Positions 249 to 20,000 of a DNA stretch of 64,000 nt are shown piece after piece. The DNA is taken from positions 5,779 to 69,778 of the forward strand of contig DYQZ01000001.1 in assembly GCA_020719005.1 (NCBI GenBank). The letters are read 5' to 3'. Made by a program: the position numbers and the translations under genes. A model generated the notes under the pieces. The model did not search any database, was not told the origin of the DNA, and worked only from the letters and a program-made list of their open reading frames with translations. This DNA is from Candidatus Omnitrophus sp. Lineage in GTDB: Bacteria; Omnitrophota; Gorgyraeia; Zapsychrales; Fredricksoniimonadaceae. Every line of letters begins with the position of its first letter. The first letter of the stretch is position 1.

Positions 249-250
249 TT

Positions 251-1932: not shown

Positions 1933-2381
1933 AAAAGAAGATAAAGATCATTAGTGTCGCATTGTTATTTTTAATAGGTATTTCTTCCGGCGTATACGCG
2001 CTCGAAAATGAAATGGAGCGGCTTCGTGAACAGTCACGGATCGAGCGGGTAAAGGAGGAAGAGATCCGGTTGCTGGCGCTTGATCTTGACCGGGTCAAGC
2101 TGGAGGCGGAGAAGAAGAAGGTGTTGGCGGAGGCTGGTGGCATTCTTCAACAGCAAGGCGTCTCTTCCGTAGCGCCTGGGGGCGTTGTGCCGCCGGAGAT
2201 CACGCTTAAGAATATTTTTATCGCAGTGTCACGCAAAGAGGCCGTGTTGGATGTGAATGGTGTGAGGGTGCGTTTGCTGGAAGGAGAGAAAAGAGGGCTC
2301 TTGTTTTTGAAAGAGGTTAACGCAAGAGGGGTGGTGTTGGTGTATGACGGTAAAGAAAATGTGTTGGGTCTGCGGTTATGA
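1929..2381 (+). CDS. Small periplasmic protein with signal/TM anchor, coiled-coil and C-terminal beta domain (PilP/GspC-like?)
   Basis: 150 aa: MKKKIKIISVALLFLIGISSGVYA signal-like N-terminus, a charged coiled-coil (ERLREQSRIERVKEEEIRLLALDLDRVKLEAEKKK), then a beta-rich C-terminus. Start and stop overlap the neighbours by 4 nt, suggesting translational coupling. Function inferred only from position. Confidence 0.3.
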   Translation: MKKKIKIISVALLFLIGISSGVYALENEMERLREQSRIERVKEEEIRLLALDLDRVKLEAEKKKVLAEAGGILQQQGVSSVAPGGVVPPEITLKNIFIAVSRKEAVLDVNGVRVRLLEGEKRGLLFLKEVNARGVVLVYDGKENVLGLRL

Positions 2382-3982: not shown

Positions 3983-5196
3983 TGTGCTGGAAATATGTAG
4001 CTATTGATCGTTCGGGGCGGGAAGAAAGCGGTTCTATCGACGGGAGCCGTGCTTTTGCACGTCAATTGTTGAGTGAAAAAGGCTTGGCGATCGTTATTTT
4101 ATATCCCTCTTTCAAGAGGTTCGGGCATAACGTTGTGTGCGCTAGGATCCGGCCGTTGTCATCAAAACAGCTGGTTTTATTTTTCAGGGATCTGGCGAAT
4201 ATGTTCGAGGCCGGGCTTGCCATTAATCAGGCACTGCTTGTTTTTAAGGAAAGCCTTGCTGACGGGAATACCGCCTTTTTTTGTCGAAGCATTCAAGAGA
4301 AATTGGCGCAGGGAGCGTCGCTGGCGGAGGCGGTCGATACAGGTGGCGTTATTCCAAAGGTCGCTGTCCAAGCGCTTCGTTCGGCTGAGCGTGCGGGTAG
4401 ATTGCCTGAAGTCTTGCGGATGCTGGCAGATTATTATGAAAAGATCCTGCAGGTGCGTCAAAAAACAGCAGGTGCTGTTATTTATCCAGTGATCGTGATG
4501 GGGCTTTTAGCAACAGTGCTGGTGTATATGTCGGTAGTTGTTGTTCCGCAAGTAGAGATGTTTTTGCCATCGTCGACGATGAAAGGGCCGCTCACCATGG
4601 CATTAATAAATATCAGTAAAGCGCTTCGCGTGGGTTGGCCATGGTTTTTGTTGGGAGGGGGCGTTCTTGGTGCGGGAGGGGTTGTGTGTTGGAAAAGGCG
4701 TCCTCTATGGTTTGAAGAGACTCTCGATCAGATGGCTGAACGTTTGCCGTGGATCAAGGGAGTAAAGAAGGATCTTTCGTTGAGCATGGCATTTTTTACG
4801 TTAGCGGTGTTGCAAAAAAGCGGTATTCCGATGGATGCGGCGTTGCGGGAAGTTTCTTTTGGTTCTCGGGGACAGACGGCGCGTGCTTTTGAAGAATGTT
4901 TAGCATGTTTATTGGGGGGCATGACGTTATCAGAAGCCGCCCGACGGGATAAATATTTCCCGCGATTCGTGCATGACACGTTGCATTTGGGCGAACAGAT
5001 GGGCAAATACGGTGAATACACCGAGCGGGTCCAGCAGGTTTTTTATAGATCATTTGTTTCGCGGATGGATTTGCTGGCGGAACTTGTTCAGCCGGTGATG
5101 TTGTGTTGTTGTGCGGGGAGTATTGCGCTGGTTGCCCTGGGGATCCTGGGGCCGATCTATGGGAATTTAGCCAATATCGGCGGGATGGTGAGGTGA
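3955..5196 (+). CDS. gspF: Type II secretion / type IV pilus platform protein (GspF/PilC family)
   Basis: 413 aa immediately after, and overlapping, the ATPase gene. The N-terminus YVAIDRSGREESGSIDGSRAFARQLLSEKGLAIVIL resembles GspF N-termini. It carries two repeated cytoplasmic helical domains separated by TM helices (AVIYPVIVMGLLATVLVYMSVVVVP; WPWFLLGGGVLGAGGVVCW; CCAGSIALVALGILGPIYGNL). Alternative starts at 3973 or 3979. Confidence 0.8.
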   Translation: MRGGEGMRMMCWKYVAIDRSGREESGSIDGSRAFARQLLSEKGLAIVILYPSFKRFGHNVVCARIRPLSSKQLVLFFRDLANMFEAGLAINQALLVFKESLADGNTAFFCRSIQEKLAQGASLAEAVDTGGVIPKVAVQALRSAERAGRLPEVLRMLADYYEKILQVRQKTAGAVIYPVIVMGLLATVLVYMSVVVVPQVEMFLPSSTMKGPLTMALINISKALRVGWPWFLLGGGVLGAGGVVCWKRRPLWFEETLDQMAERLPWIKGVKKDLSLSMAFFTLAVLQKSGIPMDAALREVSFGSRGQTARAFEECLACLLGGMTLSEAARRDKYFPRFVHDTLHLGEQMGKYGEYTERVQQVFYRSFVSRMDLLAELVQPVMLCCCAGSIALVALGILGPIYGNLANIGGMVR

Positions 5197-5199
5197 GAT

Positions 5200-6252
5200 A
5201 TGTCTGAAATAGTTGAACAGGCTTTTAATGAAGTGATCGGCCTTATTCATACGGCCCGCCGAAAAGCATTCCAGGCGGCGAATACGGTGTTGATCGAGTT
5301 GTATTGGCAGGTGGGGGAATATATTAGTCGCAAGATGAAAACGGCTGAATGGGGGGAAGGAGTTATTGAGAATTTGGCTCAATATATTGCAAAAGAGCAT
5401 CCGGATCTGAAAGGGTTTACGCGGCGTAATTTCTTTAGAATGAGGCAGTTGTATGAAGTTTATTGTGATGATCCAATTGTCGCGCCACTGGCGCGACAAT
5501 TACCCTGGGCGCACAATGTAGTTGTTTTAAATAAATGTAAGTTGCCGGAAGAACGAGAATTTTATACACGTTTAGCGATCAAAGAGCGCTTGTCCAAAAG
5601 AGCATTGGAACGGCAGATCGATGGGTGTGTTTTTGAAAGAAAAATGCTTGTTTCAACAAAAGTGCTCCCACTGGGAGCACTTTTATATCCCAATATACAA
5701 GAAGAGTTTAAAGATATTTACCTTTTAGACTTTCTGGATCTCCCCGCACATCATTCCGAACAGGATTTGCGCAGTGGTTTGGTCGCTAATTTGAAGAAAT
5801 TCCTCATGGAATTAGGGCGTGATTTTTGTTTTGTTGGTGAAGAATATCCATTGCAGGTCGGGAGCAAGGATTTTTCGGTGGACCTGGTGTTTTTTCATCG
5901 CGGCCTTTCTTGTTTGATCGCCTTTGAACTAAAGATCGATGATTTTAAACCAGCATACATGGGACAGCTTTCTTTTTATCTGGAGGCGTTGGATCGGGAT
6001 GTGCGTAAGCCCCATGAGAAGCCAAGCATCGGGATCTTGCTTTGTAAATCCAAAGATGCAGAAGTGGTCGAATATGTCCTGAGCCGCACGCTTTCGACCG
6101 CACTGGTCGCAGAATATAAAACACGTCTTCCCGAAAAAACAGTGCTTCAACAGAAGTTGCGGGAGTTCTACGAATTGGAGGCACAAAGAGATAGTGAGTG
6201 GAGACAAAACAAAAAAACAAAAGGAGCAGAAAATGAGAAAGAAAAACAATAA
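5200..6252 (+). CDS. YhcG-like PDDEXK-superfamily nuclease (DUF1016 family)
   Basis: 350 aa, with AGGTGA 7 nt upstream of the ATG. The C-terminal motif block DFSVDLVFFHRGLSCLIAFELKIDDFKPAYMGQLSFYLEALD matches the DUF1016/YhcG restriction-endonuclease-like core (D...ELK with a FYL..LD helix). The N-terminal helical domain (LIELYWQVGEYI) is typical of YhcG_N. Confidence 0.7.
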   Translation: MSEIVEQAFNEVIGLIHTARRKAFQAANTVLIELYWQVGEYISRKMKTAEWGEGVIENLAQYIAKEHPDLKGFTRRNFFRMRQLYEVYCDDPIVAPLARQLPWAHNVVVLNKCKLPEEREFYTRLAIKERLSKRALERQIDGCVFERKMLVSTKVLPLGALLYPNIQEEFKDIYLLDFLDLPAHHSEQDLRSGLVANLKKFLMELGRDFCFVGEEYPLQVGSKDFSVDLVFFHRGLSCLIAFELKIDDFKPAYMGQLSFYLEALDRDVRKPHEKPSIGILLCKSKDAEVVEYVLSRTLSTALVAEYKTRLPEKTVLQQKLREFYELEAQRDSEWRQNKKTKGAENEKEKQ

Positions 6253-6673
6253 AGGTTTTTCATTGGTGGAGCTGGCCATGGCCATGGGGCTTATGGCAGT
6301 GTTGGTTGGCGTCGTCGCGGCGGGTGGCGGGATGATGACGAAGTCGCGTGTTCAGCGGGAAGTTGATTCTATTGAGGGATTAAGACTGGCGGCACAAAAT
6401 TATCTATCGTCGAGCAGTTTGACTTTTACAGGGGTAAGCGTTACCGAACTTAAGAACAAAGGCCTTGTGCCGGCGACATTTGACCCGCTAAAAGCGAACA
6501 GTTTTGGTGGCGATTATAGCGTGAGTGCAAATACGGCGGACAGCACGCGTGTGGATATCGCGCTTGCTTTGATCCCGGAAGATGTTGGGACATCGCTTAG
6601 CGGCGCTTTTAAGGGCCGAGCCGAAGCTCTAACGTATGACAAAACAACCAAGATCTGGAAAGCCACATTTTAA
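6233..6673 (+). CDS. Prepilin-type (type IV pilin/pseudopilin) protein
   Basis: Start chosen at ATG 6233, with AAGGAG at 6221-6226. The ORF-track start 6194 is an upstream in-frame extension inside yhcG. The N-terminus MRKKNNKGFSLVELAMAMGLMAVLVGVVAAGG is a class III signal peptide: a G|FSLVEL cleavage/N-methylation motif with Glu at +5, followed by a hydrophobic helix. Confidence 0.75.
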   Translation: MRKKNNKGFSLVELAMAMGLMAVLVGVVAAGGGMMTKSRVQREVDSIEGLRLAAQNYLSSSSLTFTGVSVTELKNKGLVPATFDPLKANSFGGDYSVSANTADSTRVDIALALIPEDVGTSLSGAFKGRAEALTYDKTTKIWKATF

Positions 6674-6677
6674 TACC

Positions 6678-7094
6678 ATGATATTTTATCGACGGGCATT
6701 CAGTATGATCGAAATAACGCTGGCGTTGTTGGTTATGACACTTTTTATCGGAGGGGTCGTATCAACAGGGCGCGCGGTGATCGAGGATGCGCGCCAGGAA
6801 AAAGTATGGCGGACGCTCAGCGCATTTCTTGAGATCAGCGCGCAGTTTGATGCTGTGAAAGGGAAATATCCTGTCTCGATCGAGGAGGTCGTTTCATTCG
6901 ACACACGCGTACCCTTTTTTAATCCGTGGGGCAATGCGTATGTCGTTGTGCCGTCAGCTGCGTCGTGGTGTATCGAAACACGCGTTCCGTCGGTCCGAGG
7001 GGATATCCACCAAAGCAGTATTTTCGCGAGCGTTCTTTCACAAAAGGACGGGGATGTTCTTCGCGTGTGCAGGCCCGTTGTCACAACACCATAA
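6678..7094 (+). CDS. Prepilin-type pseudopilin (minor pilin-like)
   Basis: Start chosen at ATG 6678. The ORF-track start 6636 overlaps the previous gene. The N-terminus MIFYRRAFSMIEITLALLVMTLFIGGVVS has an A|FSMIEI prepilin-like motif (Glu at +5) and a hydrophobic helix, on a small (~138 aa) beta-rich body. Confidence 0.6.
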   Translation: MIFYRRAFSMIEITLALLVMTLFIGGVVSTGRAVIEDARQEKVWRTLSAFLEISAQFDAVKGKYPVSIEEVVSFDTRVPFFNPWGNAYVVVPSAASWCIETRVPSVRGDIHQSSIFASVLSQKDGDVLRVCRPVVTTP

Positions 7095-7106
7095 AAGAAA
7101 GAGCGT

Positions 7107-8027
7107 ATGGAACAAAAAGTCTTTTTACGTCGTGGTTTTACATTGATCGAACTGGCGATCGTGTTGTGTGTGAGCGCGATGCTCGCCGGGGCGCTGGTGC
7201 CGTCATTCGTTAAGAGTGCGCATATTGAGGCGGCACGTAAGACAGCGGCTGAAATGACGCTCCTTAAAGAAGCGGCACAACATTATTTCTTGAAGAATGC
7301 CGCATGGCCCGAGGATCTTGAAGCGCTGCGCGCATCGGGGGATATTGACGAGCGTTGGCCTGGAAGAAATCCTTTTGGAGATCTTTATGTTGTAACGCCG
7401 GACGTGGGGGGCCTTGTTCTATCAACAAAAGTTCCGTCGGCAATGGGGGATGTGGTGACGGGGGCTCTTGCGATGTCGGTCCAACAAGACGGAGAGGTGT
7501 CTTTACGCGTGACGTCTTCTCTCGATGGAGCGGGTGTGCCGGTGGGCGCGCTTTTGACTTGGCCTTCGGAGGATATTCCCGAGGGATGGGTTTTGTGTGA
7601 CGGCCGGGCGTTAGAACGCGCGGCATATTCGGCACTGTTTGCGCTGCTCGGCGTAAGTTATGGCGTTGGAGACGGAGTCACAACATTCAATGTGCCCGAC
7701 CTGCGCGGGCGTATTCCCGTCGGCTTGGATAATATGGGTGGCAGTGCGGCAAATGTGGTAAGCGGTCCATTGGCACGGACCCTCGGTGGAAAATATGGAG
7801 AAGAATCCCATGCGCTTACAGTGACAGAGATGCCGTCCCATAATCATTATGGATTCGGTGAAAATATTCCCCGCTGGCCGTATGGGACCTCCGGGCCGAA
7901 TAATAATCAAGGCCCTCCTCACGCTGATTATGACAATTATTTGCTCGGCACAACATTCTCCGGCGGAAACGCGTCGCACAATAATCTTCAACCTTCGATC
8001 GCCTTGTATTGGATGATCAAGACATGA
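7107..8027 (+). CDS. Prepilin-type pilin fused to a C-terminal phage tail-collar (Collar/MdpB-like) domain
   Basis: The N-terminus MEQKVFLRRGFTLIELAIVLCVSAMLAGALV is a G|FTLIEL class III signal peptide. The C-terminal half reads LTWPSEDIPEGWVLCDGRALERAAYSALFALLGVSYGVGDGVTTFNVPDLRGRIPVG...GEESHALTVTEMPSHNH. This matches the phage tail collar domain consensus (GW..CDG..L....Y..LF..LG..YG.GDG.TTF.LPDLRGR ... H.LT..E.P.H.H). A purine-rich SD-like stretch (AAAGAAAGAG) precedes the ATG. Confidence 0.7.
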   Translation: MEQKVFLRRGFTLIELAIVLCVSAMLAGALVPSFVKSAHIEAARKTAAEMTLLKEAAQHYFLKNAAWPEDLEALRASGDIDERWPGRNPFGDLYVVTPDVGGLVLSTKVPSAMGDVVTGALAMSVQQDGEVSLRVTSSLDGAGVPVGALLTWPSEDIPEGWVLCDGRALERAAYSALFALLGVSYGVGDGVTTFNVPDLRGRIPVGLDNMGGSAANVVSGPLARTLGGKYGEESHALTVTEMPSHNHYGFGENIPRWPYGTSGPNNNQGPPHADYDNYLLGTTFSGGNASHNNLQPSIALYWMIKT

Positions 8028-8908
8028 AATATATCCGATATCTTAGCTTGGTAGCATTGATCGTTTTTCATTGTTCTGCGTGGGCGATCGCAGCAAGGGC
8101 CGCGTCCATGATGACGCTCGCCGCCAAGGCAGATTGGTCGTGTGTGGAGTTCAAGACGCTTGGGCCGTGTTATCGAAAAACACTTCCCTACGTTGGGGTC
8201 AAGATCCGATATCGTCAGCCCGTATTATTGGTTGAGACGGTAAAGATCCCCGGAGATACGGTGATCAATGAAATGCGCGTGTTTCTGGGCGCACGATTAA
8301 AACAAAACGCGCGGGCGGCTATGAAACAGAGGACTGGGGTTGATGGCGATCCGTCCTCCGGCGGTGTCTTTAATGGCGACGGGACCGCCTTGTCGATGAA
8401 TGAAGCGCACGTATTCTCGTTCCCGTTGACAGATGTTTTCTCCACCGTTGTCGTAGCCCCTTGCGAAGGCGCGCCGGATTTAGCCGGGCCTATTGGTTAT
8501 ATCAGTGAGCTCGACGCAAAAGAGTGGCGCACGGGTGAAACGGAACAGCGGTTTTGCGGGGATCAGAATGGTGTATGGCCTTTGCCCGGGACATGGCTTG
8601 GCACATGGGGCCCGATCTATCCACGCACGGGCTGGTCGGTGGGAACGACGTCTCCTGTTGCCTCGGCCTTAAGCGCGTATCGGGCGGTCGATATTTCGTC
8701 CATCAAGCCGCAATTGCCGCGTGTTGTATTATCGAAAGTTTTATTCGTGCCGGATCTTTTCTGGGACCGGATGCAGATGGTTTATCCGTCGGCAGGAAAG
8801 TGTATCCGTATCGGTGAGGACCCGCGTTTATGGGAAAACGGAAAGAATTCTTTTGACGGGAAATTTGCATGGATATTCTGGCGAAAAAAAGAGTGTTGTC
8901 TTTTCTGA
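8009..8908 (+). CDS. Hypothetical secreted protein (Cys-containing, Trp/Gly-rich)
   Basis: 299 aa overlapping the previous stop. It has a signal-peptide-like segment MKYIRYLSLVALIVFHCSAWAIAARAAS, so an alternative start is ATG 8024. No recognisable catalytic motifs. Codon usage is consistent with its neighbours. Confidence 0.45.
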   Translation: MDDQDMKYIRYLSLVALIVFHCSAWAIAARAASMMTLAAKADWSCVEFKTLGPCYRKTLPYVGVKIRYRQPVLLVETVKIPGDTVINEMRVFLGARLKQNARAAMKQRTGVDGDPSSGGVFNGDGTALSMNEAHVFSFPLTDVFSTVVVAPCEGAPDLAGPIGYISELDAKEWRTGETEQRFCGDQNGVWPLPGTWLGTWGPIYPRTGWSVGTTSPVASALSAYRAVDISSIKPQLPRVVLSKVLFVPDLFWDRMQMVYPSAGKCIRIGEDPRLWENGKNSFDGKFAWIFWRKKECCLF

Positions 8909-9258
8909 TATCGACGGTAATAGCGTGTCACTTTGCATCATTAGCATGGTCGGGTGTATATGAATTAAGCCGTGTGGATTATTTTAATATATACGAAATT
9001 CGACGAGAGAAAAACGACACGGCTTCGCGGCAGGCATTCTCATCCGATGATCTGTGGGCGGTGGAAATGACCGATAGCGCCGGCCGTTCGTTTTTACAGC
9101 GTCCGCCGGAAGTTGTGATGGAACTGTTGAACGATCCCAATACTTTGAATGGATCGAAATATCTCGCATGGAACGAGGCGCGCATCAAACATTTGGAGCA
9201 GGCGGCGGCGTTGTTGGACGAAATATCAAAAGATCCGTCGAGGAGAACACAAAGGTGA
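8869..9258 (+). CDS. Hypothetical small secreted protein
   Basis: 129 aa with an N-terminal signal-like helix MDILAKKRVLSFLISTVIACHFASLAWSG. It overlaps the previous gene by 40 nt. No known motifs recognised. Confidence 0.4.
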   Translation: MDILAKKRVLSFLISTVIACHFASLAWSGVYELSRVDYFNIYEIRREKNDTASRQAFSSDDLWAVEMTDSAGRSFLQRPPEVVMELLNDPNTLNGSKYLAWNEARIKHLEQAAALLDEISKDPSRRTQR

Positions 9259-9262
9259 TGTG

Positions 9263-10480
9263 ATGACGTGGAAAGCAAAAGCATTGTTCATCGGCGCGGT
9301 GTTGTGGATCATCACCACAGGGGATGCGCCCGCTGATATTTTTGAGCGATACAGCGATCCGTCAATGTTGCGACAAGAGGCGTTGCGACTGGATCGCACA
9401 GGTTATGACGCCACACTCGTCGGCGGCTATATCGGCATTCCTGCGGGTGATGTCCTTTCGCCTTCATCCCGCCGGAACTGGTCGGCGAAAAGCGTTTCTG
9501 ATATTGATCCAGAGGAGGTCTTTGACAAAGATCTCCGGCGAATGATCGAACGCGACCGCAAAAGCACGGTGTCGTATTCGTCGGTGTTGTCTAACAACGC
9601 TCTTTTGTTGATGTCTTATGCCAGTCCCGCCATGGCGGATATTTTAAAACATTACAGAGCATCTTTGTTTGCCCGTATGAACATTGAATACGAGCGTTCA
9701 GCACAAAAAGACAATCCTTCGTCGGCGACGCTCGAGCTTTTCTATCGCGCCTCGCTTGATGCGTGCCTTTATCAGGAAAGGACGCGTGGATTTCTCGGCG
9801 GGCTTGAGGTGTGCAGGAAAGAGCCGCCGCTCGGGCACATCAAAGATCCGACCGGGCAATTTGTCACAACACACAGGCCGTGGGCGATCGTGATGGATGC
9901 GCTGACCCGCGTGGGTTTGAACAATCGCGCGGCGCGTCTGGCTGTTGCCATTGCGGGTGATGTGGTCATTGATCCGCAAGGCATCAACGAAACGGCCCAT
10001 ACACGTACATTTTTTACAGAGACCGAAGCCCGCGCTAAAGAGCAGATGACCGATTGGATCAAAATGCTAAGAAATTTTTCCGAAACAAAGCGCGTCAGTG
10101 ATGTTGAACTCGACATGTTAAGTTGGCCTGGTTTTTCTATAACACGAAATGCGCTGAACGATCTTTTGACCCTCAACGAAACAAAACGGGCTTTGTTCAT
10201 TTCCAGGATGGCGCAGTTGTCCGCGAGCGAGGATGTCAAAAACGACCTTCAGGGAGCGTTAAGGGCTTTAGACAGGGGGATGGCTCGTTCTGGAGCGGAT
10301 GATGTCTTTAAGAGCATCCTAAAGGCAAAGAAAGCGGTATTGATAGGGGTATTGGCAGACAAGAAAGACAAGGATGCTGGTTTTAGGGCATCGGAAGAAC
10401 TTTTTGAGGTTTTGTTAGTGGATGCGGATATTGCCAGAAAGCAAATTCTAACAAGCATGGGTGGCGTTAAAACCGAATGA
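9263..10480 (+). CDS. Hypothetical secreted protein
   Basis: Start chosen at ATG 9263 (AAGGTGA at 9251-9257). The ORF-track start 9149 overlaps the previous gene. The N-terminus MTWKAKALFIGAVLWIITTGDAPA is signal-peptide-like. The ~405-aa mostly helical body has no recognised motifs. This is the last gene before the intergenic region. Confidence 0.5.
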   Translation: MTWKAKALFIGAVLWIITTGDAPADIFERYSDPSMLRQEALRLDRTGYDATLVGGYIGIPAGDVLSPSSRRNWSAKSVSDIDPEEVFDKDLRRMIERDRKSTVSYSSVLSNNALLLMSYASPAMADILKHYRASLFARMNIEYERSAQKDNPSSATLELFYRASLDACLYQERTRGFLGGLEVCRKEPPLGHIKDPTGQFVTTHRPWAIVMDALTRVGLNNRAARLAVAIAGDVVIDPQGINETAHTRTFFTETEARAKEQMTDWIKMLRNFSETKRVSDVELDMLSWPGFSITRNALNDLLTLNETKRALFISRMAQLSASEDVKNDLQGALRALDRGMARSGADDVFKSILKAKKAVLIGVLADKKDKDAGFRASEELFEVLLVDADIARKQILTSMGGVKTE

Positions 10481-10974
10481 AACACGAAAGAAGTTTGTTT
10501 TGACGTAACATATTGATGGTATCTAACTTATGGAACATGTAAGAATGTCCAAAGTAACAGAATGGACAATCTTTTCCGACGGGAATGTGGGTTTATTCCA
10601 GGATGCAAGAATGATGAGGGTGTGAGCAATCGAAGGCGCCCCCTCACCCTTCTGGTTCGGGATGACGTGACGGAGGTGTGAGATGACGCGGCACGTCATT
10701 CCGCGGCCGACTTGTGGTGAGCCAGGTCGAACCAAGCCCGAGGAATCGCCGAACGTTGTTACGATCCGTCATATCGAGCCCGCAGGCAAACCGAGACATT
10801 GCTTACGCTATCAATAAATAATTTTTTATACTAATTAATATATAAACAACTAAAATTTATAGTAAAAATAAACAAAAAAGCGGAAATAAAAAATAAATCC
10901 AAAGAAAGTTTTCTCCAAAGCCGTAAGTTGTTATAATTTAAAGGATTACGATAATAAAAAGATTTCTCAAAAAC

Positions 10975-11002
10975 TTGCCACGCCTTGATAATATGCTATA
11001 CT
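10975..11002 (+). promoter_or_regulatory. Sigma70-like promoter for the giant gene: -35 TTGCCA (10975-10980), 16-nt spacer, -10 TATACT (10997-11002)
   Basis: Near-consensus hexamers with 16-bp spacing sit directly downstream of a very AT-rich stretch (10800-10970, UP-element-like). The predicted TSS is about 11009, giving a ~60-nt leader to ATG 11069. Confidence 0.4.
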
Positions 11003-11068
11003 CTTCATGTCGTCCTTGGTGGGACGATAGATATGTTTCATGAATAAACCCGTATCAAATGGGAAAAC

Positions 11069-14000
11069 ATGGACGAAAACCGCAAAGACCTCAACAAGAA
11101 CGACATTAGTCCCCTTTTTGGGGATGAGTCTTTGCGCGCGGTGTCTGAAACAAGTAATATTCCAGCAAAAACCCCCTCCACAACGCCCCTGACCCCGAAA
11201 AATGGGCATGCGGCTTTGGTCAATGAATTCAAAAATATGGTTCCCGACGGTGTTACGTCGAAGGATTCAGCTGAGACCTCAGTGCCTCCGGCAGGCGTTT
11301 TTGATGATGTGGACCCCGCTCTCGTAGGTGTGGGCATGGGTTCAGATGGTTTTGTGTTGGGTGCTGAGGATGCTATTGTCACACCCGAAGGTCCGTATTC
11401 CAGCCGTTTTAGCACGTGGATGCGCGTTGTTGCTTTTGCGATCGTTGCTATTTTTCTACCAGATCAGATCAGCTGGGCGTTTAATTATAATCCTGCCGTT
11501 CTTTACGGGAATCAGGTTTCAACGGTCATGGCCCCCATGCCCGGGATGGATCTTCTAACACCAAAACAACTTTCTTCCATGCAGGTTTCGGCCAGCGTTA
11601 CCGACCTCTTAAAACAAGTTTCTGAAAAGAGCGCGGATAAAGTAAGCATCAAACTTGATGATAATCAAGGACTTATGGGCCTGAATGGAAAAGAGCCCGC
11701 TATCCTTGAGATCAACAACGAAGCCAAAATGACCGCGCCCCAGATCGAACAGGTGCGTGCGTGGTTGAGCGATCCGAAGATCAATGCCCTCAATTGCGGT
11801 GTGTTCGCGCTGAAAGAAATATTGTCTGGTAATGGTATAGATAAAACCGTTACAGAACTTGCTGTTACGACGATCAGCACCGATTTGATGGCTAATATCA
11901 TCAAGCCTGGCGATAAAAAACTTAAAGTTACGCTTTATTCCATGACCGAAGTTGCTAAAGCCCTTGGTCTGAACGTCAAGGCCTTAAAAGTGGCACCGGC
12001 TGAAATGCTCGCCCTTCCCAAGCCGTTCGTGGCGCATCTTTCCGACGAGCACTTTATTACAGTTTTAAAGACAGATGGCAATGATGTTGTAGTGAGCGAT
12101 ATGGGCGAAACGCTCCATATGGCGCGCGACGATCTGGCCGCGAAAGCCAGTGGTTTTGTCCTTTCCCGCGTTGATGCCAACATCCTTCCTTCCTATAAAG
12201 AGGTTTCTTCATCCGCCCAGGCTTTCGTGTGGGGCGACCGTTGGAAGCGTCAAAAGCTTCCGGGGCTTGAATCTGCAGGGTCACAGCTGAGAAAATATGC
12301 GATCGACATGACGATCAAACTCGTCACGGCGATCATCGCTTTCTTTTGTGGTCCGGCGGGTTGGATCTCCTGGATCGTTGCTCAGATCGCCGATGCGCTT
12401 ACTAGGATATGTGTTGTGGCGGGTGCTTGTACGGCAAAACAGGCGTTTATCATTAATACAGCAATAGCTGTGGCGACGATCATCTGTACGCTTGGGGCAA
12501 GTTCTTTAAATACAGCAGGACAACAAACCGCAGCACAAGCTGGCGCACAAGCTTTCAAGGGGGCTCTTACAACCGCGTTAGGAACTGTTGTAGGGACTGT
12601 TGTATATGCGGCAATCGGCCTTGCTATTGGTGTAGGCGCGGCGCATTTATTATGGAAAGTCAATCAAAAGATAGACGCAAAATATGGTTCTAGTTCACCG
12701 ATCGCAATGACGTTGAAGGCGGTTGCGTCCGCGGTTGTGACGGGTGCATGTACAACCGGTCTGTTTAGCTGGGGGAACGCTATTAAAGATGGTCTGAAGA
12801 GCATGGCCAGCGGAGTGGGTACAGAAGCGGCAAAACAAGGCGCACAACAAACGGCTGCGGATTTTGCTGTAGCGATGTTTGTTAAGCTTCCGAAGTCGGT
12901 ATTAGATGGTATTGGTATAACCTCAAGTAGTGATGCCTTTAGGAGATTTTTATATACACAAGGCGGTTCTTTGGCTGTACGCATGGCATTTAAAAATAGC
13001 AAGGATACGGCATTGGTTGATGCGTTGGCCACTCTTGGTGGAGCGGCAGCTGGACTGGCGGGGTCTTATATTGAACATGGAGCTACGACTGGAGACTGGG
13101 CGGGTGTTCCAACGTCTCTTGGAGAAGAAATAGAGCCCGTTGATCCTACAACTGTTAATACGATGGCGGAAGCCACTACATCCGACGCGCCCAGGTCAGC
13201 TGTAGGTCAGTGGATCGACACAAAGATCCATAATACGGGTTGGACAGGGGCGATCGTTAGAACGATGGGCAGAGCAACTCTCGAGGCGAGCGTTTCATTT
13301 ACTATGGGCAGGATGGAAAAGAGCGTTGTTGGCGAAGATGATGGTTCGGCCGCTTATCAACAAAAACTTTTGGGGTATCGTTCGTTGAGTTTTGGTATTG
13401 CTGGAATGATCACAGGGGTTTATATAGGAGTACGTTCGGCGTTGGATTCCAATGGAACCGGCATGGTATCTTCTTTCTTTAAGGGTTTTGGGGGTGGCAT
13501 GGTAACTGGCGCTATGGATAGTCTTACCAAAGCGTATGGTAAGCAGGATTTTGATACGATCATGAGTAATGCTCCTAAGCAGGGCGGGATAGGCGGGGAT
13601 GTCGAATATAACATGGCTTTGGTAAATGCGGCTCAAGGCATGTCTAATAATACAGGTATGACCTATGAATATTTCAGCAGTTGGGATGCGCAATGGAAGA
13701 CGATGAAAGAAGAGAACGCCAAGTCTGACAATCCGGTGAGTCAAAAAGAATTGCGCAAGGAATATCAAAAAGCTTTTGGTCGAGATATTCAAAGCACCCC
13801 CGGCATCACAGGGATGAACGGTATTTTAAAGACAGCTAATATTGATATGCGTGTCAAAGCTGTTGAGAGCGGTGTGAGTTGGGCTATGACCCGCGGGCTT
13901 ACTTCAGGCTCTCTTGAGCATCAGCAAGCCAAACGTGCGGTGGTCAAGCTTGGATTGACCTATCGTGGAAAAGAATTATTTGCTGGATCTGATCGACAGT

Positions 14001-17000
14001 TCGCAGAAAAGAACGGTCGTGCGTTGAGTTATTATGTAGAACAGGCTGAATTATATTCTGAAAAAGCCTCCACGTTATGGGGTGAGGGTGCATATACAGC
14101 TACGGTATTTGCTTCCGGTAAAAGAGAATTCAATAGTAATGTCGACAGTGAATATATGCCCGATCGCGATATCGTGTCAAAGGACGGCACGTATACAGCT
14201 AATTTAAAGACGGGCGAGATCAAATATTCAGATGGGCGCGTAGTGGTCGACGCGGCTACTGTTGGAACAATGCTCAACGAGGGTCAGCTGAAGGATCCTT
14301 TCAAAGTTGATATGAACCAGCCGTGGGCCCAGAACACGACTAAAGTCAACGCACGATATATTGATACAAGCTCGATGGGGATCGCACGCTTTGGAGATCG
14401 GTATGCGCTGAATAATGTGCCGAATGTTATTACTATAATGACGCCAGATGGCCAGAAGAGGGTCGTTAATAATCCTCTGGTTCTTTCCAGCTCTGTTTAT
14501 AATTTTGATGCCAAGCGCGCGGAAATGAGTGGTAATCAAGCGGCTTATATTCAAAATTTTCAGCAGGGTCGTTTAGCACAACAAGCGGCGTTTGAAAAAA
14601 CGTTGCCGCCGGAAATGGTTGCAACAGCGCAAGCGTTAGCAAAGAATGATCTGACCAATCCGCAGGTGCAGGCATTGATGAAGGCCAATGGCGGCGATTT
14701 TAATGGCGCCGTTCAGGCTTTTAAGAAAGAAGTGTTGAGGGTTTCCCCGATGCTTTCTTCTCCGAGCACACCGAAAGCATTCAATCATGATGCCCGTTCC
14801 CAAGAGATCGATAATTATTTGCAGCCCGTCGACTCCACTACACTTTGGAGTGTTTCAAGAAGGAACGAATTCGGAAAAGATAATCAGGCGGGGGTTTCGT
14901 TCGGGGTAATTAAAAATCAGGATGGTTCTTCGACACCATCAATGACACCGTCGATGACTTTATATCAGAAGACGCCTTCCGGAGAGCTTCTTGGTGTGGC
15001 CGCTTTTGTTTCAAGGGCTATGACCGCTGATAACACGAACGGGAAGATCCTTTCTGGTCAGGGTAGTTTAATGGCTTTTAATAGAGAAGGAAGTCTTGCG
15101 TCGCTTCGCCAGATGAACAATGAACAAACACCGTCAGAAGCTGTGCTGTCCGGCGGAATATGGGAAAAGACGGCGTTTGGGAATAATGGCGCCTCGTCGG
15201 CAAATATGCTTGATGCAACGTTCAAACAGATGAAGAGCGAAAACATCGACGCAAATATTGGCACCAAGCATTTGGTTTATGCCGGCATGGGCGATGGGAA
15301 CGAAAAGGCCGCGGCCTCTGTTGCGAACGATTTTATTTCTACTGATATGGGGTCTGGGGAAAGAGCATTAACAACAGTGACGACGCGTGATGTTATAGGC
15401 GCACGAAATATTATTTACTCGACGGATTCACAGGTTATTTCAAATCAAAATATTGAAAAGAACACGGGAAGATTTGTTACTGGGGTCGCGGTTGATAAGA
15501 GGGTTAATTTGCCCATGTTCTTGATGCCTGATAATGGCGTCTCCGGTTTAGGTGTGCGGCAGCTTTTGTTGAATGGTTCTTCGGAAATAGTAGATGAAGG
15601 CACGAGCCGTTTTCTTGGTGATGCTAAATACGCCACAGATGAAAATGGTTTGGCGGAGGCAAAAGGTTTTAGTTTTGATGGAAGATTGAAAGGAATAACA
15701 GTTGATGGCAAGACACAAGGCCGTGTGCTTTATCAATTCTCTGCCGGCGAGTCATCTAAAGATCCGTTTCAAAAGAACGGAAGTCAAGGAGAGATGAGTC
15801 AAGTTCGTGGGGAAAAAGACGCGTATCCTTTCATGCGTGCAGTTAATTTAACTCAGGCTGGGGACAATCTTGTTGTAAAGAATAATGGGAGCAATGGTTT
15901 TCAGATCGAAGGGCCACAGACTTTTCGTTCGACTGCACAGGGCGGCACACATCCGACCATGATGCCTGTTTTGATGAACGACACATACACGTCGACACAT
16001 TTTGCAGCGGCTCTTGTGAATGGAGGAAAGACGGTTACGAAGGATGATAAAGGCAATAATGTATATGAAAACGGAACCATGCTGGATGTTAGCGCGTTTG
16101 AGTCAAAAGATAAGGTTAATGGAAAAGATATTACTAACAAGACGATCGTGAACGGCAGCCTTGTTTATGATGCTCAAAATGGTCAGTGGCTTGCTGAGAA
16201 GGGCAATACAGCGTTGACAGGTAGTGCGGAAAGAACAGTGGACGGAACAAATAAAATAATGGTTTCCAAAGATGCTCCGATCGTGTTGGCAGATCGCAGG
16301 GTTCAATTTACTTTGACTGGTGAGACACAAGAGAATGTTCCAGGGTTCAATAAACAAACACAGCAAGGCTGGGCGCAAGAAGTAAAACAGGGAGAGCTTT
16401 TAAAGCAGGATGAAGCAATTGTGCCGCAAGTCGGCGGCACTGTTGGAATACCTGGTTTTAATGACAATAAAGCACAGATGAAGATGCTGAATGATGTTGA
16501 GAAAGCAAATCAAACAGATGCGAAAATTAGTGGTATTCAAGGGACCAATGGGGAAGCTCTTCCGGCAGTAAATGTTGAAGGTTCTGTTTCTTATCGGTTG
16601 GGCAATGAAAATAGCGCGCTTAATACTGCTTTGTGGGACGGTGGTTCAAAGTTAACACTAAAGGATAGTTCCTTTATTAGAGCTGGAAACAATTTATATT
16701 TTGCAACACCCCAAAAAGGAAAAGAAAAAGAAGTTTCGACTGTTCAGCTCAACTATGACCAAAACGGTAGTATTTATGCTGAACAAAGCGGCGCGCCGAT
16801 CAAACTTGGCCTCTGGTCACACGCATCAAGTTCTGATACACACTTTACAGAATTTACGGTTATGGGTGATCAGTTGGCGCTTACAGGCGCTTTGCCTACG
16901 ACCAAGGGAGATTTGAAATTATTAACTGCAGAGGGTATTAGCGCCCTGGATGCCAATCCAAATTTCTTTAGCGGTAAGACATTAAAAGGTTTGGGTATTG

Positions 17001-20000
17001 ATGGTGAGGCTGTGCATGCCACGGTGGCAACGCATCAAGATGGCACATCTTCTATCTTAGAAGCGCCCCTTGATTATGCGCGTCGTCAAGGAAAAGATAA
17101 TGGAATTGTTCTTGGCACAGATCCCAACATTCAAGTCAGGCAACAAAAACCACAAACTGTTTTTCAAGGCGATAGTTTTGTCAATAAGAATGTCGAGGCA
17201 AAAGTAGAAACCTTGGCTGATTTTGCATTTGCGCGAAACATGGAAGATAAGGATACTTTAGGTGGTTTCATTGAAAATCGTAATCCTTTGACAGTTAAAC
17301 AAAAGGAATTTGTTTTTCAGCCAGCCGGTATTTCAACTAAAGAATCTGAAGTCCCTGTTGAGGTAGTTGCAAAGAAAGAAGATGTTCTTAATAGCAATAT
17401 TATTGTTGTTACGGCTTCTCGTAATCCAGAGGCATCATCTGCAGGCCAACTCACAAGCGCATTAGCTGGAGGAGATTTTATTCTTTCGGCTGAAGGGGAA
17501 GAAGACACCCTTGAGTTTAACGCTTCTCAAAGCGGGCTTTCATTAGGATTGGGTGAAGGAACAAATATCCGCGTTACCAAAAGTGTTCTGAATGCCGGAA
17601 CGTTCCAGTTTGGATCAAGAAATCAAGACGGTACGTTTCAGGATGTTCACACACTCAGCGCTCAAGATAAAGGCGCAACATTATCCACCGATAATCTTAC
17701 TATTAGTGTTGATAAGCAGGGTCTTGCGTTTAAGAATGCTGCTGATGGTGTGTTGTTGGATTCAGTTGTCTCTAAAGCCGGGTCTGTGGAGGCGAATAAA
17801 GGCATTTCGATGGTCTTTAACAATGATGAACAAGGGAAAAAAGTTAAGGGCTGGATCCAGGCTGATATGGCGGGCAACCGAGTATTAAATGATCAGGGCG
17901 CATGGATCATACCGATGGATATGATGGATGGAAGTGTTGATGGAACAGGAAGCGGTCTTATTGTGACCCATGTTAATGGTCAAGGTTTTCGTTATGCTGA
18001 TATTGTTGGCATGAATGCGGTTTATGATAAAGATGTCGAGGCTGATGACCGGACAAATGATGATACCTGGGCCTTTAAATTACAAGGAAAGAATTTTGAG
18101 CCCGCTTCTGCAGAAGGGGCAGCGCAACAAGGGCCGACCGTTGAGCCAAAAGCCAGAAGTCTGCAACAAGCCCAGCTTCATGCGACTGAAGAAGTGGGGC
18201 GTGGGATTGTTGAACAAGATAGTTCTGCCAATGTTGCTAATGATGTGGCAATCGTTAAAGGACATAAAGGGCTTATTAATACGCCCATAGCCCAACGTTT
18301 ATTAAACACAGATAACATTAGTTACAATTTAACGTATGGTGGTGTGAGCAAAGATGGCGAGATCGTCGTTGGCTCTACCGCTGGTTTAGGCAACAGTGCA
18401 TCGATCGAGCATGTGAATACGAAGATCAACAAAAATGACAATAGGACAATCGAAACAAGAGCTGTTTCATTGATTGGGGCTACAAAGTCCGAAGAATCTA
18501 TCGTAGGACAGGCTATGGGGAAAGTTGACGGTATTTGGAAACGGGGCGGAACATATAAAGAAACACCTAGTGATACAACGACTTATTTCTTTGGCGAGAA
18601 TGAGCTTAAAGATGCTAAGGGTAAAGACAAAGCCAAGATCGCAGGTATTCAGCCGTCAGTAAAAGATACAAATCGCTATTTACATCGGGCTGTTGAAATT
18701 AATGGTTTGTTTGTGATGTCAAAAGTGACAGGAGATCAAGGGGCAGATGTTGTTTGGAATGATGAGTTTGAAAAAGTGATCGCAGGCACTTCAAAAGATG
18801 GAAGATTTTATACAACGGTTGATGAAAAAACGAAAGAAAGAAAAGTTTTTGATGTTGAATCAGGGCTTTTGGTAACGCTTCAGATCGGACAAGATGATAA
18901 AAAGACTATAACAAAGAAACAAGAAATAATAAATCCAATAACGAAGAAGCTTGAAAAGGTTGACGTAGTTGAAACGATCGAGTTTGAGAATAAACACGAA
19001 GTATTACGTACAGGGACGTATGGTTTAGTAAATTATGACACATATGAAACAAAAAAGAGCGCGACCCCTGAAGTTAGCAAAGTGATTGTTTGGGACGGTG
19101 TTGAATATAATATGATCACATATCTTGCTGGAGACCGGCAGATTGTGAAGCTTGTGAATACTAAGATGGAATATGATGTTTTTGATTCGTTAGCAAGAAC
19201 AGATGTTGGTGCTTCTATTGCTGGATATTTTGTTCCTAATGCAAATATGCAAGATGTGCAACGCGTTGCAACAAGTAATCAAAAAGCAAAACAGGAGCAA
19301 AATGTTTTTGTTTTTGAAGTAAATAAAGAAGGTACGTGGGCGCCGTTAAAGATAGACCTTGGTGGCGAATATAGCGCCCCATTATCCAAAGATACGCAAC
19401 TTTGGATCGATCAGAAAACGGGCGTGGTTTCGTTTGGCCCAGTAAAGAATGCTGATGGCAATGTAGGTAAAAATGATTATTTGGTGGTATCTCATCATGA
19501 CGTGGTTACAAAGAAGTATTCTGGCTGGTCGAAGTGGATGGCTAGAAGAAATGTGGGTGGGTTTCTTGATGGTTCGGATTTTTCAACCACATTGAGCACA
19601 TCATTGGCCGCAAAAGGTCATACGGCTTGGTCAGAAGTGTTGGCTCCGAGTAATACGAGTGGGCTTAATGGAGTGGCCACGGTTGCGACTATTCCTCTTA
19701 TTGCTGCAGGCACAGCATTAAGAGTGGCTCAGGCTGGCGGTATTGTGTTGAAGACAAGCCAGACTATTGGAGCTGCGAGTAAGATTTTGAATGTTGCGAA
19801 AGCTACAGGGGATGCGTTCTGGATTGGGAATGCTGTTGTAACGAGCACGGGAATTCTTCGCGGACAGTCTTTCAGTGATGCGACAGCGACTGGTTTTTCT
19901 TCTGGTTTGTCTGCTGCGAAATTGAATTTAGGCATTACGGCTCTTGGGTCTGTGGCTAATGGGCTAAATTCGGCATTGTTAGCTAGTAAGACCGTGAAAA

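Follow-up and report, generated by a model that had tools for sequence, protein, structure and literature searches.

Giant genes of Omnitrophota in which an N-terminal C39 domain lies beside a signal peptide have already been reported, and cleavage of either the giant protein itself or other substrates has been proposed for the C39 domain (West-Roberts et al. 2023, bioRxiv 10.1101/2023.11.21.568195). The giant Omnitrophota proteins have been implicated in predation and prey-wall degradation (West-Roberts et al. 2023). Of the architecture clusters formed by long Omnitrophota proteins, that of PF03412, the Pfam family of C39 peptidases, is one of the two largest (bioRxiv 10.64898/2026.06.07.730766). 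Related toxin domains, Tox-PL-C39, have been described in polymorphic toxins (Zhang et al. 2012). For giant bacterial genes, which may comprise tens of thousands of codons, a central question is whether the product functions as one chain or is cut into pieces.

Here we analyse the head of a giant protein encoded in a stretch of Omnitrophota DNA of 64,000 nt (the window). The C39-headed protein is a further example of the known Omnitrophota arrangement, not a new discovery.

Giant open reading frame and its genomic context

The giant open reading frame (ORF) starts with the ATG at 11069, following an in-frame stop at 11045, and a frame scan of the 64,000-nt window found it free of stops up to the window end, that is, over at least 17,644 codons. 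The resulting N-terminus, MDENRKDLNK, is also present in the relative P0002 (common MDE(N/K)RKDLN), supporting the start at 11069. The preliminary description of this DNA had placed the start of the feature at 11418, which is corrected here on the grounds of the upstream stop and the shared N-terminus. The ORF and the elements upstream of it are as follows.

2378–8908, + strand: type II secretion/type IV pilus-type cluster, upstream of the giant ORF and on the same strand
2378–3982, + strand: T2SSE ATPase of this cluster
3955–5196, + strand: T2SSF of this cluster
6194–6673, + strand: pseudopilin of this cluster
6636–7094, + strand: pseudopilin of this cluster
7107–8027, + strand: pseudopilin with phage tail-collar domain, same cluster
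8009–8908, + strand: TraU-like protein, same cluster
10975–11002, + strand: promoter-like site (TTGCCA, 16 nt, TG-TATACT; 10 of 12 consensus positions, a consensus match only)
11069–64000, + strand: giant ORF

The promoter-like site is located ∼67 nt 5' of the start codon, inside a 590-nt intergenic gap; six such sites were counted in that region versus 1.6 expected. The pseudopilins carry classical prepilin sites, G|F(S/T)L(V/I)E. No homologues of the secretion/pilus genes were found in the upstream DNA (up to 10 kb) of 41 related loci, and the cluster was for this reason rejected as a part of the C39 head module.

A hydropathy scan revealed 35 peaks along the giant protein, and in its length and number of helices it qualifies as an Omnitrophota giant protein, for which many membrane helices and an ORF of some 7,000 residues or more are expected. 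Further Pfam domains downstream include NAGPA, guanylate kinase, NUDIX, 2H-phosphodiesterase and M28/M42, as well as UPRTase, HAD, PEP-utilizers_C, HATPase_c and Bac_transf. PF07517 (SecA DEAD-like) had no match in the 17,644 residues within the window, the ORF running past 64000. When a second C39 copy was sought along the giant protein none was detected, the domain being present in a single copy only. Pfam scans of the 17,644 residues likewise returned no match to ABC_membrane or ABC_tran, so the fusion typical of PCAT/AMS is absent and the earlier statement that this C39 domain is not fused to an ABC transporter holds; NCBIfam ABC-exporter models gave sub-threshold scores only (13–14 bits against cut-offs above 700). 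There were no matches to the PADLOC defence models, nor to Rfam in positions 1–12500.

The N-terminal C39 domain

The head of the giant protein can be divided into six consecutive segments.

11069–11395, + strand: acidic N-terminal tail of variable length, predicted to be cytoplasmic (residues 1–109)
11396–11479, + strand: putative export signal or signal anchor (n/h/c pattern, positive-inside and -3/-1 rules)
11480–11734, + strand: linker and N-terminal extension of the peptidase domain (F-N-Y-N-P motif, disordered linker, helix, beta-hairpin)
11735–12169, + strand: C39 peptidase core (residues 223–367), from PF03412, the LahT/PCAT1/ComA profile alignment, AlphaFold2 and Foldseek
12209–12238, + strand: conserved post-domain segment S-S-A-Q-A-F-V-W-G-D (residues 381–390)
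12296–12643, + strand: cluster of 3–5 hydrophobic helices (residues 410–525, hydropathy), closing the conserved head module

PF03412, the LahT profile and Foldseek agree on a C39-like papain-fold peptidase that follows a hydrophobic helix and heads the giant ORF, as had been suggested from the sequence initially. The 500-residue N-terminus matched Peptidase_C39 (PF03412) with an E-value of 3.6e-9 and 37.0 bits, versus a gathering score of 22, the isolated domain scored 41.3 bits, and 33 of 34 family members lie above the gathering score. The Pfam alignment spans profile positions 44–126 only, with His and Asp inside and Cys outside, and the N-terminal third of the domain is too divergent to be aligned by the Pfam model. 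When a family profile was compared with PDB sequences, the best match was to LahT150 (6mpz; E 4.9e-10), followed by PCAT1 and ComA, and Cys, His and Asp stand in register in these alignments; the family profile was needed for this, as a single-sequence phmmer search of the PDB sequences produced no match.

The AlphaFold2 model of the domain has a pLDDT of 93.2, and its best structural matches in the PDB are all C39 domains. All 31 Foldseek matches at E ≤ 1e-3 were to C39 domains, C39-like domains or papain-like toxins, and those to ComA and LahT had a probability of 1.00 and TM-scores of 0.72–0.74 (normalised to ComA and LahT). The N-terminal extension consists of a linker (about residues 140–160, pLDDT 48–60), a helix (165–184, pLDDT 86–92) and a beta-hairpin (191–216). 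The feature had been delimited as 11418–12130; the C39 domain is indeed found there, although its core reaches to about 12169 (residue 367) and the ORF begins at 11069. It is almost certain, judging from profile and model, that the domain has the C39 fold with a conserved and probably catalytic Cys/His/Asp triad, and peptidase activity is predicted for it.

Predicted catalytic residues and family-specific positions

Both segments singled out initially for the catalytic pair, NALNCGVFALKEIL and EHFITVLKTDGNDVVVSD, occur in the frame assigned to them, with TGC at 11795–11797 and CAC at 12050–12052. The residues discussed below are the following.

11762–11764, + strand: Trp232, nearly invariant (127 of 131) and family-specific
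11795–11797, + strand: Cys243, sole Cys of the domain and predicted nucleophile, aligned to the catalytic Cys of LahT (QMEALECG)
11882–11884, + strand: Asp272, invariant in the family and outside the canonical triad (conservation columns)
12050–12052, + strand: His328, predicted catalytic base (eHfVlV aligned to NHFVVL of LahT)
12098–12100, + strand: Asp344, predicted third residue of the triad, 16 residues after the His (the spacing of ComA and PCAT1) and aligned to the D of YINDP in LahT

The presence of an intact Cys/His pair at catalytic positions, as first proposed, was confirmed by alignment with LahT, PCAT1 and ComA, and Asp344 could be added as the third residue. Cys occupies the Cys243 column in 124 of 131 relatives (95%) and Ser in five; His328 is kept in 126 of the same 131 (96%); and in the Asp344 column 97 sequences have D, 19 have E and six have N, so that 116 (89%) carry an acidic residue. 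In the AlphaFold2 model Cys243 is located at the start of a helix (243–254). Its predicted catalytic position is based on the profile-to-LahT alignment (locally weak, 6.9 bits), the match to the C39 fold and the 95% conservation.

The outcome was different for the oxyanion Gln/Asn, which the preliminary description had proposed to verify by alignment. The canonical position, Cys-6, is K237 here and P, E, D, G or K across the family, the canonical Gln being absent throughout it; Asn at Cys-1 is kept in 84 of the 97 sequences with a residue there. Since the canonical oxyanion Gln is missing, activity or specificity may differ from that of PCAT-type enzymes. Trp232 stands at Cys-11 in the window's protein and, as an invariant Trp, at Cys-6 in a short-loop subfamily (WLKGKPCG). 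Asp272 is the only invariant column of family alignment A1 and is invariant in alignment A3 too. Gly389, in the FVWG block behind the domain (pLDDT 97 in the AlphaFold2 model), is also invariant (column G289 of alignment A3).

Putative export signal and probable topology

With the ORF starting at ATG 11069, the hydrophobic helix comprises residues 120–138. It precedes the C39 domain, as described initially, but is situated behind an acidic stretch of about 109–117 residues, not at the extreme N-terminus. The segment has a basic n-region, Y-S-S-R-F-S-T-W-M-R (residues 110–119), an 11-residue hydrophobic core, VVAFAIVAIFL (120–130), and a c-region, P-D-Q-I-S-W-A (131–137); AlphaFold2 places a helix at residues 116–137. 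The family signal motif is P-D/E-Q-x-S/A-W-A|F, followed by the conserved F-N-Y-N-P and preceded by an R-rich stretch ahead of the hydrophobic core. Among the ∼101 sequences with a residue at these positions, 96 retain P131, 95 retain Q133 and 98 retain A137. Relative to the putative cleavage site, P stands at -7; of 101 sequences, 96 have S or A at -3 and 98 have A at -1. From these features the helix looks like a long-tailed Sec signal or a signal anchor, and the peptidase domain (residues 223–367) is found near the N-terminus of the protein beside this signal-like segment (110–137). A Tat signal was rejected, SRFKxW not being twin arginine, as was a prepilin signal, G|F-x-x-x-E being absent; the resemblance to a mirror-image PEP-CTERM-like sorting tag is superficial only, and that candidate was also dropped.

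Both the signal and the topology were assigned by rule, using the positive-inside and -3/-1 rules. K+R residues average 2.9 upstream of the helix versus 1.3 downstream in the family sequences, with more upstream in 76 sequences and more downstream in three, so that the N-in orientation is favoured. The single Cys of the C39 domain was counted as further topology support, as were the signal peptides reported beside such domains (West-Roberts et al. 2023), whereas a K/R-rich loop before the next helix (seven in about 25 residues), taken alone, points to the opposite topology. On balance, the sequence rules make it probable that the C39 domain is extracytoplasmic.

Distribution of C39-headed giant proteins

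An exhaustive HMMER scan identified 312 representatives at E ≤ 1e-3, as opposed to only two matches in a word-indexed homologue search. Searches based on an alignment of eight close sequences retrieved 41 genomic loci sharing this layout, nearly all of which carry the label Candidatus Omnitrophota. A standalone C39 domain leading a giant ORF, considered unusual at the outset, is thus both already published and recurrent across Omnitrophota. Among the 150 best representatives, 125 domain matches place the module within the first 200 residues; in the relatives its starting point ranges from residue 1 to residue 200. At 36 of 43 loci the fetched DNA ends before the ORF does. The head (about residues 100–500) is the only part common to all 21 relatives of at least 3,000 residues, and the body is not conserved. 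A conserved head ahead of a variable body fits a shared biogenesis or maturation device preceding variable cargo.

Possible roles of the C39 head

In the scheme that we consider the best overall explanation, an acidic cytoplasmic tail would be followed by a Sec-type export signal or signal anchor, a short linker, the C39 peptidase (Cys243, His328, Asp344), the FVWG segment and a small bundle of membrane helices, together forming the head of an archaeovorin-like giant membrane protein. The peptidase would be translocated to the periplasmic face and held there against the membrane, with the giant polypeptide behind it as its most likely target. Exported loops or modules might be clipped, by analogy with other C39 enzymes after small residues of the Gly-Gly type, and pieces of a membrane-stitched polyprotein thereby matured or released, perhaps for onward export. 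The chances of this picture as a whole, in which an exported, membrane-held C39 head acts on its own polypeptide by analogy with known enzymes, appear to us evenly balanced, and self-processing as the main role is a tentative reading that falls somewhat short of that.

The amino acid composition of the giant protein provides a hint in this respect. Gly-Gly occurs 67 times in the window's giant protein where 106 are expected (z = -3.8; ratio 0.63), the strongest depletion among the 400 dipeptides, versus a ratio of 1.09 in the upstream genes of the window; in 36 long relatives the ratio is 0.89 (range 0.51–1.37), versus 1.19 in 103 neighbouring ORFs. The depletion, which is modest and variable among relatives, suggests a cleavage specificity as a weak hint, and it could also result from secondary-structure content rather than from selection against cleavage sites. 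Double-glycine (GG/GA) leader-type sites had been proposed as something to look for: leader-like motifs (h..h.G[GAS] and longer) occur in the giant protein at chance frequency, no cleavage site was identified there, and a double-glycine leader is absent from the neighbouring small ORFs. The literature consulted contains no proteomic evidence of giant-protein fragments. Moreover, the UPRTase, guanylate kinase, NUDIX and PEP-utilising domains use cytoplasmic substrates, and a periplasmic protease could therefore not reach those segments.

A bolder version, unlikely in our estimate, would have the head be a self-contained release device universal to the otherwise hypervariable giant proteins of Omnitrophota, namely a periplasmic, membrane-tethered Gly-Gly endopeptidase that cuts its own chain co-translocationally. 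Its parts would be an extended signal with P-E/D-Q-x-S/A-W-A|F-N-Y-N-P, the C39 domain, the docked FVWG389 segment and the helix bundle. The canonical oxyanion Gln would have been swapped for the family-specific, invariant W232 and D272, and the avoidance of Gly-Gly along the body (0.63 versus 1.1–1.2 in ordinary genes) would be the evolutionary footprint of its specificity. The near-invariant signal motif might also act as a sorting tag of its own, distinct from a generic Sec signal.

Alternatively, the head might process other proteins, either secreted cargo or pilus/secretion partners with double-glycine-type leaders, in the manner of PCAT and LahT. The closest solved relatives are indeed leader-peptide peptidases, LahT-type domains are promiscuous towards GG leaders, and a secretion/pilus gene cluster lies directly upstream in the window; this option was also listed by West-Roberts et al. 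(2023). However, the GG/GA leader is absent from all neighbouring ORFs, the prepilin sites of the pseudopilins are cut by a different enzyme, the upstream cluster is not conserved beside the module in the 41 related loci, and the strict cis linkage of the C39 domain to giant ORFs would be left unexplained. We regard partner processing as doubtful. An offensive function is rather improbable: the exported domain would be a papain-like protease, displayed on the predator surface or set free from it, that attacks envelope proteins or peptide cross-links of the prey. This would suit the predicted extracytoplasmic location, the predatory role proposed for giant Omnitrophota proteins, the existence of Tox-PL-C39 toxin domains (Zhang et al. 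2012) and the Foldseek matches to 9l5u and CdiA-CT 8ssk (TM-scores of 0.55–0.57 query-normalised and 0.33–0.66 target-normalised). Nevertheless, polymorphic-toxin domains are C-terminal and variable, whereas the domain considered here lies at the N-terminus, close to the membrane and flanked by hydrophobic segments, and no other part of the protein is as well conserved; an arms-race effector would show the reverse. Its sequence profile is nearer to exporter peptidases than to toxins.

Two further possibilities would dispense with peptide hydrolysis. As in HlyB, a non-catalytic C39-like module could bind or chaperone the giant protein's unfolded segments while it is being exported; the structural matches include the HlyB domain (3zua, 7sgr), the family lacks the canonical oxyanion Gln, and Cys or His is lost in about 5% of its members. 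Yet HlyB-type domains are without the Cys, and conservation of Cys (95%), His (96%) and Asp/Glu (89%) across 131 relatives is not expected without catalysis, so that this role seems quite improbable. Papain-fold chemistry of another kind, i.e. transglutaminase-like cross-linking or the acyl/amide transfer seen in BtrH and CtaG, might for instance couple the giant protein to the envelope. The replaced oxyanion Gln, the unexplained family-specific W232, D272 and G389, and weak matches to BtrH-N/CtaG (profile E 0.56; Foldseek TM-score 0.48) would be in line with it, but the peptidase matches are much stronger and PF03412 takes in 33 of the 34 members, which leaves it hardly credible.

Being the only part conserved across these proteins, the C39 head is the natural point of entry for experiments: its domain measures 170 residues, has a defined Cys/His/Asp triad and is amenable to expression, mutation and peptide assays.

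Comparison with known systems

The window's protein differs in nothing essential from the 'archaeovorins' of Omnitrophota (West-Roberts et al. 2023). It shares with them the phylum, the location of the C39 domain close to the N-terminus and next to a signal-peptide-like helix, a giant ORF with many membrane helices in which NUDIX, glycosyl-transferase, peptidase and hydrolase domains are scattered, the proximity of a type II secretion-like cluster, and the proposed role. To the published account the present analysis adds the conservation statistics of the triad, the lack of the canonical oxyanion residue, the conserved signal motif, the invariant W232, D272 and G389, the Gly-Gly depletion, the recognition of the head, not the body, as the conserved unit, and a probable extracytoplasmic site of the C39 domain that limits which segments could be cut. 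These details do not change the category, the arrangement having been described before (West-Roberts et al. 2023).

PCAT1, ComA and LahT150 (MEROPS C39) share with the Omnitrophota domain the fold, the Cys/His/Asp triad, the 16-residue spacing from His to Asp and membership in PF03412. In contrast to them, the Omnitrophota domain is not fused to an ABC transporter, is preceded by a putative export signal and is probably periplasmic rather than cytoplasmic; it lacks Gln at Cys-6, its N-terminal third has diverged from the Pfam model, and it possesses an extra N-terminal helix and hairpin as well as the C-terminal FVWG segment. A double-glycine leader, moreover, was found neither in the giant protein above chance nor in the neighbouring ORFs. 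Given its predicted export, the domain probably differs in topology from the cytoplasmic C39 domains of ABC exporters, and the analogy to them would not hold in this respect.

The C39-like domain of HlyB lacks the catalytic Cys and serves as a substrate-binding module. It resembles the Omnitrophota domain in fold (3zua, TM-score 0.67, target-normalised) and in its N-terminal position in a membrane protein handling very large substrates, but differs in that the triad is conserved in the Omnitrophota family. Finally, Tox-PL-C39 and other papain-like toxins (9l5u, 8ssk) likewise present a C39-related papain fold inside a very large exported protein; their domains, however, are variable, lie at the C-terminus and are accompanied by immunity proteins, whereas that of the Omnitrophota giant proteins is N-terminal, conserved and membrane-proximal.

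Reading frame of the giant ORF

The giant ORF lies on the + strand. A frame scan of the window placed an in-frame stop at 11045 and the first ATG at 11069, from which the frame is stop-free to 64000 and still open at the window end (at least 17,644 codons). ATG 11069 is the likely start codon, because an independent metagenomic protein (P0002), 88% identical to the window protein over the shared part, has the same N-terminus (MDEKRKDLNN... versus MDENRKDLNK...); residues are counted from this ATG. A promoter-like site occupies positions 10975–11002 within the 590-nt gap upstream. GC skew is +0.1 to +0.3 throughout, and an antisense ORF of 622 codons inside it (29255–31123, − strand) is probably a by-product of this strong composition skew. 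The G+C content is 0.43–0.44 at 16001–28000 inside the ORF versus 0.47–0.50 elsewhere, and no Pfam domains were found in that interval.

Identity of the C39 domain

The domain at the front of the giant ORF is a C39 peptidase, as the preliminary description had proposed for positions 11418–12130. Both motifs quoted there are present exactly as given, with the Cys encoded at nt 11795–11797 (residue 243) and the His at nt 12050–12052 (residue 328). In Pfam, PF03412 (Peptidase_C39) scored 37 bits against a cut-off of 22 (E = 3.6e-9), and 41 bits with the isolated domain. The alignment spans only profile positions 44–126, with the His inside and the Cys outside; therefore, the position of the Cys was checked separately. 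Searched exhaustively with HMMER, 1.84 billion representative proteins yielded 312 relatives at E ≤ 1e-3, including 59 at E ≤ 1e-30. When a profile built from 34 domain sequences was compared with the sequences of solved structures, the best match was the solved double-glycine peptidase LahT150 (6mpz; E = 4.9e-10), followed by PCAT1 and ComA. The family segments lnCGvyaL, eHfVlV and yftDi fall in register with LECGAASL, NHFVVL and YINDP of LahT, respectively. An AlphaFold2 model based on the same alignment (pLDDT 93.2, pTM 0.88) agrees with this assignment: all 31 Foldseek matches in the PDB at E ≤ 1e-3 were to PCAT1, ComA, LahT, HlyB-type C39-like or papain-like toxin domains (TM-scores 0.72–0.74, normalised to the small ComA and LahT domains), and no non-peptidase fold competed among them.

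Residue conservation was counted in a 131-sequence family alignment.

Catalytic positions of the C39 domain
Cys243: C in 124/131, S in 5/131
His328: H in 126/131
Asp344 (His+16, as in ComA): D in 97, E in 19 and N in 6 of 131

This is the pattern of an active enzyme, unlike that of the Cys-less HlyB-type C39-like domain. The sole canonical feature to fail was the oxyanion Gln at Cys-6, which is replaced by K237 in the window, by P, E, D, G or K in the family, and by a near-invariant Trp in a short-loop subfamily (WLKGKPCG). Asn stands at Cys-1 in 84 of the 97 family sequences with a residue at that position. W232, D272 and G389 are invariant in the family and have no counterpart in the classical C39 description.

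Head architecture and topology

A second model, covering residues 101–420 (pLDDT 84.5), shows that the conserved head exceeds the Pfam domain in size.

Features of the head (+ strand; residues of the giant protein)
116–137: helix
about 140–160: disordered stretch
165–184: confident helix, N-terminal to the core
191–216: confident hairpin, N-terminal to the core
223–367: C39 core
381–390: segment SSAQAFVWGD with the invariant G389 (pLDDT 97)
410–525: hydrophobic cluster, its first helix within the model

The N-terminal transmembrane helix described previously exists as a hydrophobic helix, but at residues 120–138 rather than at the extreme N-terminus. It belongs to a signal/anchor element (window 11396–11494) with the family pattern F-x-S-R-F-K-x-W-I-R, 11 hydrophobic residues, P-(E/D)-Q-x-(S/A)-W-A and F-N-Y-N-P, where P, Q, A and Y are near-invariant. 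It is built like a Sec signal, with n-, h- and c-regions, a helix-breaking Pro at −7, S or A at −3 (96/101 sequences) and A at −1 (98/101). No resemblance to a named signal type was observed: it is neither a Tat nor a prepilin signal, and the likeness to PEP-CTERM is a mirror image only. Its conservation greatly exceeds that of a generic Sec signal, and it might serve as a dedicated tag for sorting or recognition. Within 15 residues of the hydrophobic stretch, K+R averages 2.9 upstream versus 1.3 downstream, with the excess upstream in 76 sequences and downstream in 3. By rule, this predicts an N-in orientation, whether the signal is cleaved or retained as an anchor, although a K/R-rich loop precedes the next helix; the peptidase would therefore lie outside the cytoplasm.

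Distribution and gene context

With each GTDB species represented by one genome, a scan found the head module at 41 loci, nearly all labelled Candidatus Omnitrophota; the others have submitter labels of related or generic bins. The C39-bearing ORF runs past the retrieved DNA in 36 of 43 loci, that is, for at least 3,600 residues where the full 10-kb flank exists. Among the 150 best HMMER representatives, the module lies inside the first 200 residues in 125 domain matches. In BLASTP comparisons of the window protein with 21 relatives of at least 3,000 residues, only residues about 100–500 were common to all, with almost no detectable similarity beyond; the conserved part is therefore the head, with a variable body behind it. 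The domain is not always single or N-terminal, since seven relatives (P0056, P0068, P0075, P0077, P0079, P0091 and P0100) contain between two and four internally placed C39 copies (in P0056, at about 627–750, 1649–1792 and 1787–2000). Another relative, P0001 (43–45% identical), carries a TAA stop in frame within the domain, between EEHFGTVTGITDTEVA and SDLGQPARMARGEF; it lies downstream of the catalytic His and upstream of the Asp. It occurs at 1105–1107 in contigs L001 and L002 of two samples (ENA ERZ27313599 and ERZ18667937), and the frame beyond is open to the contig end; this could reflect a pseudogene with a nonsense mutation, a split gene or stop-codon read-through.

The body of the window protein shows about 35 hydropathy peaks and scattered enzyme domains (NAGPA, guanylate kinase, NUDIX, 2H-phosphodiesterase, M28/M42 peptidase, UPRTase, HAD, PEP-utilising, HATPase_c and sugar transferase). 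It also contains a tandem duplication of a ~290-residue unit (46172–47914; residues 11702–11990 and 11996–12282, 70% identical) and a dispersed repeat of ~125 residues (59303–59698 and 62897–63268; residues 16079–16210 and 17277–17400, about 40% identical).

Upstream of the giant ORF are genes for a T2SSE ATPase, T2SSF, three pseudopilins and a TraU-like protein (8009–8908; PF06834, E = 1.5e-27), the last directly after the pseudopilins. TraU is normally part of F-type conjugative pilus assembly. A YhcG/DUF1016 PD-(D/E)xK nuclease gene (5200–6252) interrupts the cluster between the T2SSF and pseudopilin genes. One pseudopilin (7107–8027) combines a prepilin motif of the classical type (G|FTLIE) with a fused phage tail-collar domain (PF07484, E = 3.6e-23) and a weak Gp10 C-terminal baseplate domain; it could be a pilus-tip adhesin made from phage tail-fibre parts. 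In relatives, the 10 kb upstream of the module yielded no homologues of the secretion/pilus genes.

Possible function

The results show a conserved, apparently competent cysteine peptidase in permanent cis linkage with the beginning of giant ORFs. We tentatively favour self-processing, in which the exported domain would cleave its own giant polypeptide at the periplasmic face, because the cis linkage is strict, because a conserved head precedes variable bodies and because of the rationale already published. One difficulty is that several domains of the body act on cytoplasmic substrates and would escape an exported protease. The window protein has a single C39 copy, with no additional ones found, and its GG/GA/GS leader-like motifs occur at chance frequency only. 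In an exploratory count, Gly-Gly was the most depleted of the 400 dipeptides.

Gly-Gly observed/expected
Window giant protein: 0.63 (67 observed, 105.7 expected, z = −3.8)
10 upstream genes in the window: 1.09
36 long relatives: 0.89
103 ORFs next to relatives: 1.19

Such depletion is how avoidance of the protease's own recognition dipeptide would be expected to look, and it points in the opposite direction to the negative motif tests; the effect is modest and variable (0.51–1.37 per protein), the ratios being without structural-class control. Gly-Gly is absent from the first 631 residues, and Asn-Gly is the most enriched dipeptide (113 observed versus 60 expected).

Alternatively, the head might process other leader-bearing proteins, but none of the neighbouring ORFs carries a double-glycine leader. 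The other rivals are an anti-prey effector, a non-catalytic chaperone and non-peptidase papain chemistry. Papain-like toxin domains among the structural matches speak for the effector, and the conserved Cys/His/Asp speaks against the chaperone. The replaced oxyanion Gln speaks for non-peptidase chemistry, and the much stronger matches to peptidases speak against it. The preliminary observation holds once its start and boundaries are corrected; its interpretation was right on identity and is unproven on function, self-processing included. The domain offers a practical way to ask if the giant proteins of bacteria are cleaved into fragments.

Comparison with known systems

The C39 head is not novel. 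N-terminal C39 domains of Omnitrophota giant genes, beside signal peptides and with type II secretion genes nearby, were noted by West-Roberts et al. (10.1101/2023.11.21.568195), who suggest the giant protein itself or other proteins as substrates. Among architecture groups of long Omnitrophota proteins, a 24-protein PF03412 cluster is one of the top two in size (10.64898/2026.06.07.730766). The arrangement, called unusual in the preliminary description, is therefore not so within this phylum, and both the observation and the hypothesis coincide with earlier ones. In ABC exporters the C39 domain is cytoplasmic, whereas that of the window is predicted to be extracytoplasmic, on the opposite side of the membrane.
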